Positions 30,895 through 31,060 of a stretch of DNA of 64,000 nucleotides are shown piece after piece. The position numbers were made by a program, and so were the translations under genes. The notes beneath the pieces are model-generated. The model saw nothing but the letters and a program-made list of their open reading frames with translations. It was not told the origin of the DNA and made no database searches. Numbering within the stretch: the first letter of the stretch is position 1; the number at the start of each line of letters is the position of its first letter. The DNA comes from an uncultured Anaerolineae bacterium (GTDB lineage Bacteria > Chloroflexota > Anaerolineae > JACIWP01), in NCBI GenBank assembly GCA_938049385.1, contig CALIBQ010000025.1, positions 427-64,426 of the forward strand, written 5' to 3'.

Positions 30895-31060
30895 GAACGG
30901 CCTGGCGGCTGAAGCCGCGGCAACAACTGCGAAGCCTGCCTGCGCAGGCAGGCTTCGCGAAGTCGGCGCCGGCCGACTTCGCAGGCACAGCCGCAGTTTC
31001 AACTGCCAGGCAAAGAGCCAATACCCGCAAATGACAATCTTGGCTTTTCCCACACCCTCG
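30895..31060 (+). repeat. Interspersed structured repeat element, copy A (about 165 nt)
   Basis: CGGCCTGGCGGCTGAAGCCGCG...GCCTGCCTGCGCAGGCAGGC (a 20-nt perfect palindrome)...CGAAGTCGGCGCCGGCCGACTTCG...CAGCCGCAGTTTCAACTGCCAGG...CCAATACCCGCAAAT...CTTTTCCCACACCCTC. It is homologous to 36667..36796 (same orientation) and 60836..60960 (reverse orientation). Confidence 0.8.

Follow-up and report, generated by a model that had tools for sequence, protein, structure and literature searches.

Three related stretches of intergenic DNA occur in a 64,000-nt segment of a contig from an uncultured Anaerolineae bacterium (hereafter the window), and the question that they raise is whether they are RNA genes or regulatory signals of the host, palindromic units of the REP type, or small mobile elements. 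The window has a G+C content of 65% and its genes are for housekeeping functions and polysaccharide synthesis; no tRNA gene was found in its 64 kb. The closest homologues of its RecA, GreA and M20 peptidase proteins are encoded by metagenome contigs and genomes labelled Anaerolineae or Chloroflexota. A first description, made from the letters alone (the sequence-only reading), had presented the three as a family of highly structured and mosaic repeats, and had proposed for them small RNAs or attenuators, REP/BIME units moved by a TnpA-REP-type enzyme, and MITEs or targets of another mobilising enzyme.

A repeat search, an nhmmer profile of the three copies and short-word BLASTN gave the same result, namely three related non-coding copies, A, B and C, and no further copy within the 64-kb window (Table 1). 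The 21-mer CCGCAGTYYCAACTGCCRGGC has exact matches at the three copy sites (three found in the window, against 0.04 expected), exact matches to GCGGCTGAAGCC are restricted to the same three sites, and the two-block motifs are confined to them as well, which is far above chance. Over aligned positions, B and C are 86% identical to each other; the corresponding values against A are in Table 1. The common blocks listed in the sequence-only reading had been quoted correctly, though not each block is present in each copy. A is flanked by a SnoaL-like gene on one side and by recA-recX on the other, B lies between greA (followed downstream by lysS) and a CRISPR-like array, and C between a methyl-accepting chemotaxis protein (MCP) gene and an M20 peptidase gene. 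Only mechanical ORFs overlap the copies, and it is real genes that flank them, so that their description as intergenic and without credible ORF is borne out. The sites had also been located properly, but the limits had to be revised: the start given for A, 30895, omitted 37 nt, and with them the left terminal repeat and an AT-rich segment of 25 nt; for B, given as 36667-36796, the left edge stands and the right edge was moved back; for C, positions 60836-60854 are flanking DNA and the element itself spans 60855-60961.

Table 1. Position of the three element copies, of the termini and target duplication of A, and of the promoters and other features next to them. Coordinates are those of the window.
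Feature	Position	Strand	Remarks
Element A, intact copy of the probable MITE	30858-31059	+	202 nt; upstream of recA; its excision gives gapless colinearity with relatives
Left terminal inverted repeat of A, AGGGTGCTGAAAAAGTCCAA	30858-30877	+	
Right terminal inverted repeat of A, reverse complement GAGGGTGTGGGAAAAGCCAAG	31039-31059	-	
Target-site duplication GTATTA, left copy	30852-30857	.	Abuts A directly
Target-site duplication GTATTA, right copy	31060-31065	.	Abuts A directly
Element B, decayed copy	36667-36792	+	126 nt; flanked by the greA and CRISPR-like-leader promoters, which are divergent; 91% identity to A
Element C, decayed copy	60855-60961	-	107 nt; between the MCP and M20-peptidase genes; 95% identity to A
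recA promoter, TTGACA-17-TATAAT	30818-30846	-	Conserved in relatives; left tip of A 11 nt upstream of -35
CRISPR-like leader promoter, TTGACA-16-TATAAT	36805-36832	+	Right tip of B 12 nt upstream of -35
greA promoter, TTTACA-16-TATAAT	36635-36662	-	Truncated left edge of B 4 nt upstream
Probable MCP promoter, TTGCGT-18-(TG)TATAAT	60814-60843	-	Right tip of C 11 nt upstream of -35
Relic tip in L093			11 nt from the greA -35
Relic tip in L110			12 nt from the greA -35
Hybrid promoter-like site	31040-31069	+	-35 TTGGCT in right end of A, -10 TACAAT in duplicated target and flank; created by the insertion of A; antisense into the SnoaL-like gene
recA 5' untranslated region	30747-30800	-	GC-rich hairpin CGCCGGCGCCGATGCCGGCG, conserved in relatives; loop somewhat variable
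greA leader	36541-36662	-	Terminator-like hairpin and T-run, GCGCCGAGGGGCGT CTTTTTTATT (36607-36594), between promoter and start codon
CRISPR-like array	36805-37418	+	Five ~37-nt repeats, CTCTGAAAACAACGAATGCCCGCAAGGGCATTACGAC, spaced by 74-80 nt
Three conserved genes by the array	37496-43338	-	DUF7033 protein of 504 aa, 414-aa protein, 1038-aa protein

The two ends of copy A, AGGGTGCTGAAAAAGTCC / GAGGGTGTGGGAAAAGCC, are imperfect terminal inverted repeats about 20 bp in length. When the left repeat, AGGGTGCTGAAAAAGTCCAA, is compared with the right one read as (G)AGGGTGTGGGAAAAGCCAAG, 14 positions out of 20 match without a gap, and about 16 out of 19 when one gap of 1 nt is introduced. The right tip, ...CACCCTC, is identical in A, B and C. 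Three exact occurrences of the terminal motif GGGTGNNGRRAAAG are found in the 64-kb window, every one at an element terminus; in the shuffled-sequence control, about 1.2 matches were obtained per 64 kb with one mismatch allowed.

The hexamer GTATTA flanks A on both sides and, at the junction that faces recA, occupies the positions 6-11 bp upstream of the -35 hexamer of that gene; strictly, as the base that follows is ambiguous, the duplication should be given as 5-6 bp. Comparison with relatives, whose contigs are designated by L numbers, shows how the locus looks without A. The intergenic region upstream of recA is 357 nt long in the window versus 149 nt in L089 and L090, the RecA proteins of which are 98% and 95% identical to that of the window: about 208 nt are found in the window only. 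Once positions 30858-31065 are taken out, the window aligns without any gap to L089, L090, L092, L098 and L102 (five empty sites out of five), and these sites carry the hexamer once, as GTATTA in L092, L098 and L102 (...TGTATTACAA...) and as GTGTTA in L089. From the length of the window-only segment, its gapless excision and the flanking GTATTA, it follows that the insert is made of 202 nt plus a 6-bp duplication. A is a recent insertion and has been mobile; among the three copies, it alone possesses both termini and a demonstrable target duplication.

MITEs are described as stably folding elements of 50-800 bp with terminal repeats of at least 10-15 bp, which duplicate 2-10 bp of their target and the sites of which are empty in some genomes and filled in others (PMC11602168, PMC3184786, PMC3733652). 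The present family is small and non-coding and it has terminal inverted repeats, a stable fold, a target duplication and empty sites, the last three being seen on A. It is highly probable, in our opinion, that it is a lineage-specific non-coding MITE, with A as an intact and recently transposed copy and B and C as decayed ones. The suggestion of a MITE, or of some other mobilising enzyme, was the one among those made initially that gained support, from the terminal inverted repeats of A, its 6-bp duplication and its five clean empty sites. None of the 40 ORFs of the 64-kb window encodes a transposase of any kind, and neither a transposase nor a parent insertion sequence is present in the loci of the relatives. 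The element would be moved in trans, via its terminal repeats, by a DDE-type transposase whose gene would lie in another part of the genome. Copy A was inserted recently by a cut-and-join reaction; the 6 bp that were duplicated (strictly 5-6) belong to an AT-rich target located 5 bp ahead of the -35 hexamer of recA. The enzyme may, with lower confidence, favour promoters of the sigma-70 type and insert at a set distance, about 5-11 bp, from their -35 boxes on the upstream side. We found no evidence for a host function, as an RNA or as a regulator.

Such a MITE would add a lineage-specific family to what is known of Anaerolineae, a poorly studied class of Chloroflexota, and the filled versus empty comparison dates the insertion upstream of recA. 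The element could be used as a strain marker and as a handle toward the cognate transposase, and it is a likely source of assembly breaks in the MAGs of this lineage.

The position of the copies calls for a second question, i.e. why their ends are found next to promoters. Element tips are located at a regular distance of 11-12 nt upstream of a -35 hexamer (Table 1), and when the distance is counted from the conserved CACCC it amounts to 12-14 nt at the five junctions out of five (four promoters). The promoter of the MCP gene was read by eye and by pattern match, the consensus scanner having made no call there; its -10 region is conserved in L105. The regularity is suggestive of a choice of target upstream of promoters, with five junctions of which one, that of A, is a directly observed fresh insertion; purifying selection in these very compact intergenic regions could be responsible for part of the pattern.

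A more precise scheme can be put forward tentatively, as a possibility that we hold to be rather less likely than its opposite. In this scheme the transposase would measure its insertion point from sigma-70-type promoters. Its cuts, some 5 and 11 bp ahead of the -35 hexamer, would generate the 6-bp duplication; the system, of which the MITE would be the representative here, would be analogous to those of TnGBS, ISLre2 and ISKra4 except for the stagger, and the greA, CRISPR-like leader, recA and MCP promoters would be hit time and again in sister Anaerolineae lineages. Recurrent hits on the same promoters would explain the relics of terminal repeats found at matching positions in those lineages. 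If there is indeed a promoter-measuring transposase, its activity could rewire the way in which recA, greA and the CRISPR-like leader are controlled from upstream. If the 11-12 nt placement holds genome-wide, promoter-targeted transposition, so far known from TnGBS, ISLre2 and ISKra4-group elements, would also be found in a non-autonomous element and with a new length of duplication.

The same geometry can be read as the sign of a service rendered to the host. A selfish MITE would then have been co-opted, its A/T-tract terminal repeats, at about -48 to -62, serving as UP-like or factor-binding modules or its end contributing a hybrid outward promoter, and would have been retained for that reason. 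The tips are at 11-12 nt from the -35 at recA, at the array leader, at the MCP gene and, in the form of relics, at greA; the relics in the relatives retain mainly the terminal-repeat part; and the hybrid promoter-like sequence TTGGCT-18-TACAAT spans the right end of A. We nevertheless consider co-option unlikely. In B, mutation has altered the A/T tract of the terminus (CCTCTCC), neither B nor C has conserved the hybrid promoter, and the relatives keep the same promoters without the element. Moreover, targeted insertion, or selection against insertions inside promoters, can explain the geometry without any host function.

A few other features of the neighbourhood were noted. The CRISPR-like array next to B is preceded by a leader of about 230 nt which is almost invariant in the relatives and folds at -93.9 kcal/mol (z = -3.2); a long hairpin occupies approximately 36871-36945. 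No match to a cas gene or to a defence system was found in the whole 64 kb. The contigs of relatives often end at the array, and L111 is without it. The three conserved genes located by the array were considered as cas-like candidates and rejected: there is no cas match in Pfam or PADLOC, and the genes are kept in a relative that has no array. No Pfam or PADLOC match of any sort was obtained for the 414-aa and 1038-aa proteins. In the relatives these genes are syntenic with glycosyltransferase genes, even where the array is missing, and therefore they probably belong to a polysaccharide cluster and not to a CRISPR system. On the other side of B, the hairpin of the greA leader is invariant in all the relatives examined and has no match in Rfam; we take it to resemble the terminator in the greA leader of E. 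coli, from which the GraL RNAs arise.

Whether the copies are maintained as structured nucleic acids was assessed by comparing their folds. The predicted fold of copy A takes in the whole element, from one end to the other: it is a long imperfect palindrome that encloses two perfect hairpins. Its energy is -101.2 kcal/mol (z = -7.6), that of the opposite strand is -110 kcal/mol, and the interior of the element contains GC-rich perfect palindromes of 28 and 24 nt. For B and C the folds are no better than those of shuffled sequences (z = +0.9 and -0.3, respectively). The initial view of the family as highly structured is thus valid for A but not for the other two. With respect to A, B is missing 39-40 nt at the left and about 32 internal nt, while C is missing the left 40 nt and, further in, three segments of 6, 17 and about 33 nt. 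B and C have each lost by deletion 43 of the 67 pairs predicted for A. Substitutions break four pairs in B and three in C (seven in total), one pair is retained via a G-U change, and across the 67 pairs there are no compensatory changes in B and C. By inspection, the deletion junctions are mostly at or beside palindromes and between short direct repeats (GCGAAG...GCGAAG, GGC...GGC), and we infer that the deletions in B and C arose by slippage. B and C are the same element as A after decay; their substitutions are uncompensated and the structure is not maintained. The mosaic aspect that had been reported corresponds to a real pattern of blocks, the cause of which is simple: B and C are deletion derivatives of a full-length element similar to A.

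These data bear directly on the proposal that the copies are small RNAs, or cis-regulatory RNAs such as attenuators, insulators or terminators, kept by selection upstream of important genes. A is very stable on both strands, and every copy is in an intergenic region bearing a promoter. Against this, B and C fold like shuffled sequences and, since there is no compensatory change and most of the pairs of A are deleted in B and C, structural covariation, the lack of which had been named in the sequence-only reading as a ground for refutation, is indeed lacking as far as RNA readings are concerned. Covariance models matched no known non-coding RNA family at gathering thresholds anywhere in the window, generic hairpin matches being far below; in a permissive Rfam search the match with the best E-value was CRISPR-DR28, at 24 bits for a threshold of 35. 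Neither within A and C nor next to them is there a terminator-like site; the copies have no promoter-like site ahead of them whose orientation would be consistent from one to the next; and in the relatives recA manages without the element. Both the small RNA and the attenuator options are therefore very improbable.

Single-strand transposition by HUH enzymes, as in IS200/IS605, inserts DNA without target duplication. REPs are palindromes of 20-40 bp tagged with GTAG or CGTC and associated with the RAYT tyrosine transposases (PMC3733652). The likeness of our family to REP/BIME and RAYT systems resides in the GC-rich extragenic palindromes, perfect ones in the interior of A, and in the mosaic look of the copies (PMC3733652, PMC2817692); in addition, RAYT-like genes are flanked by long, partly self-complementary terminal repeats able to form repeat families (PMC3733652). 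Units of this type, spread by an HUH/Y1 tyrosine transposase (RAYT or TIRYT), have in our estimation only a very slim chance of being what we observe here. GTAG, CTAC, CGTC and GACG are all absent from A, B and C, a lone CGTC being present in the flank of C, and the unit is 202 nt long instead of 20-40. The terminal inverted repeats and the 6-bp duplication of A are not products of single-strand HUH transposition. Finally, no Y1 domain was detected in the 40 ORFs of the window: there is no RAYT nearby, and the linked tnpA(REP)-like gene that it had seemed worthwhile to look for is not there. The REP/BIME and TnpA-REP suggestions were dropped on these grounds.

As to the distribution of the element, about 195 kb of loci from relatives, taken around recA, greA and the M20 gene, yielded no copy, and nothing similar was found in plasmids and phages by BLASTN or in viral contigs by scanning. 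A scan of the JGI metagenomes with the two-block pattern gave a single match, inside a 1733-aa ORF and with no other similarity, which we attribute to chance. When a collection of genomes totalling 596 Gb was scanned with the 18-mer GGCCTRGCGGCTGAAGCC, a pattern too short for a collection of that size, 88 loci were returned; the second block was absent and all are chance matches. The family appears to be restricted to the window's own lineage.

The sites of B and C in the relatives are less tidy than that of A. B is absent from the relatives, where its site carries other short sequences, including relics that look like terminal repeats; C is absent from L104 and L105. At both sites the intergenic DNA of the relatives is highly diverged and contains other short inserts, and there is no clean empty site. 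In one relative species, represented by nine contigs (L093-L099, L101), the terminal motif has a single exact match, a relic located just upstream of the greA promoter (GGGTGCGGGAAAAG). L110 has, at the greA site, what are apparently two terminal-repeat tips abutted, and L105 has the terminal motif with one mismatch at the C site. Terminal-repeat-like relics, together with lineage-specific GC-rich inserts, were observed at matching promoter-proximal positions in L105 (1232-1535), L110 (7320-7400) and L093 (9840-9900). The relics suggest that promoter-proximal intergenic positions are hot spots for this element or for related ones.

How old the occupancy of these sites is can be discussed from the divergence of the DNA around them: the unconstrained flanks of the window and of L092 are only about 53% identical (i.e. 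they differ by about 47%). The relics at the B and C sites may result from an ancient occupancy followed by lineage-specific decay, or they may mark recurrent targets. Given copies that are 86-95% identical and flanks at about 53%, simple shared ancestry of B is unlikely unless gene conversion has occurred. B and C may be ancestral insertions common to several lineages, as the relics hint, but recurrent insertion or gene conversion would account for them equally well. That the family could be an ancestral, non-mobile sequence deleted in the relatives is hardly credible: deletion does occur in this family, judging from the relics at the B and C sites of the relatives, but five relatives from at least three lineages lack exactly the element and one hexamer, with a single GTATTA or GTGTTA and no scar, and copies 86-95% identical in the face of such diverged flanks are therefore younger than the lineage splits.

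To place this probable MITE among known systems, several groups of elements can be considered. Correia/NEMIS elements of Neisseria are also MITEs located beside genes, in which full-length and internally deleted size classes coexist, and they can contribute promoter elements at their ends (PMC3184786, PMC11602168). They have features of their own, i.e. a TA duplication, terminal repeats of 26 bp, documented promoters and IHF sites, and their sequence is unrelated to that of the element described here. Similar in build are Chunjie of Geobacter uraniireducens and Nezha of Anabaena/Nostoc, which are non-coding and intergenic, measure about 130-235 bp, fold stably into rods and carry inverted repeats at their termini, with direct repeats on the flanks (PMC3184786). 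The fold of Chunjie, at about -98 to -130 kcal/mol, compares with the -101 of copy A, and the recent mobility of Nezha is seen, like that of A, from empty versus filled sites in close relatives (PMC3184786). Neither shows sequence similarity to our element, the host of which is an uncultured Anaerolineae. Chunjie is A+T-rich whereas the interior of our element is GC-rich, and its duplication is of 9 bp against 6 here.

With regard to target choice, the comparison is with Mutator-like DDE transposases. Those of TnGBS, ISLre2 and the ISKra4 group direct insertion 15-17 bp upstream of sigmaA -35 boxes; in the ISKra4 group both orientations are used when the terminal repeats are similar, and the ISKra4 family (p-MULT 4) is present in Chloroflexi (PMC3942029). 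In the Mutator-like families (p-MULT: IS256, ISLre2 and ISKra4) the terminal repeats measure 18-39 bp and their terminal base is a conserved cytosine; the direct repeats are of 8-9 bp (PMC3942029). Several traits differ here: the distance to the -35 is 11-12 bp and not 15-17, the duplication is of 5-6 bp and not 8-9, and the left tip is an A, which is not the conserved terminal base. An imperfect duplication of 9 bp (GTGTATTAA / TCGTATTAC), which would have fitted these families, was excluded because the TC that follows CACCC is present in the three copies out of three, and hence is part of the element. The likenesses that may be drawn are an end at a near-fixed short distance upstream of sigma-70/sigmaA -35 boxes at the five junctions, in either orientation, a terminal repeat of about 20 bp, and a right end in ...CTC in all three copies. 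They extend to the sequence of the ends: the terminal repeat of ISActu1 (IS256 family), GAGGGTGTCGGAA, is identical at 12 positions out of 13 when set against GAGGGTGTgGGAA / GAGGGTGTGGGAA of our element, and the start of ISAcce1 (ISKra4 group), GGGTGC, resembles the element tip (PMC3942029, Table S1). By this analogy, the link to Mutator-like transposases may be taken as a lead toward the enzyme that would move the element, rather than as membership of one of these families.
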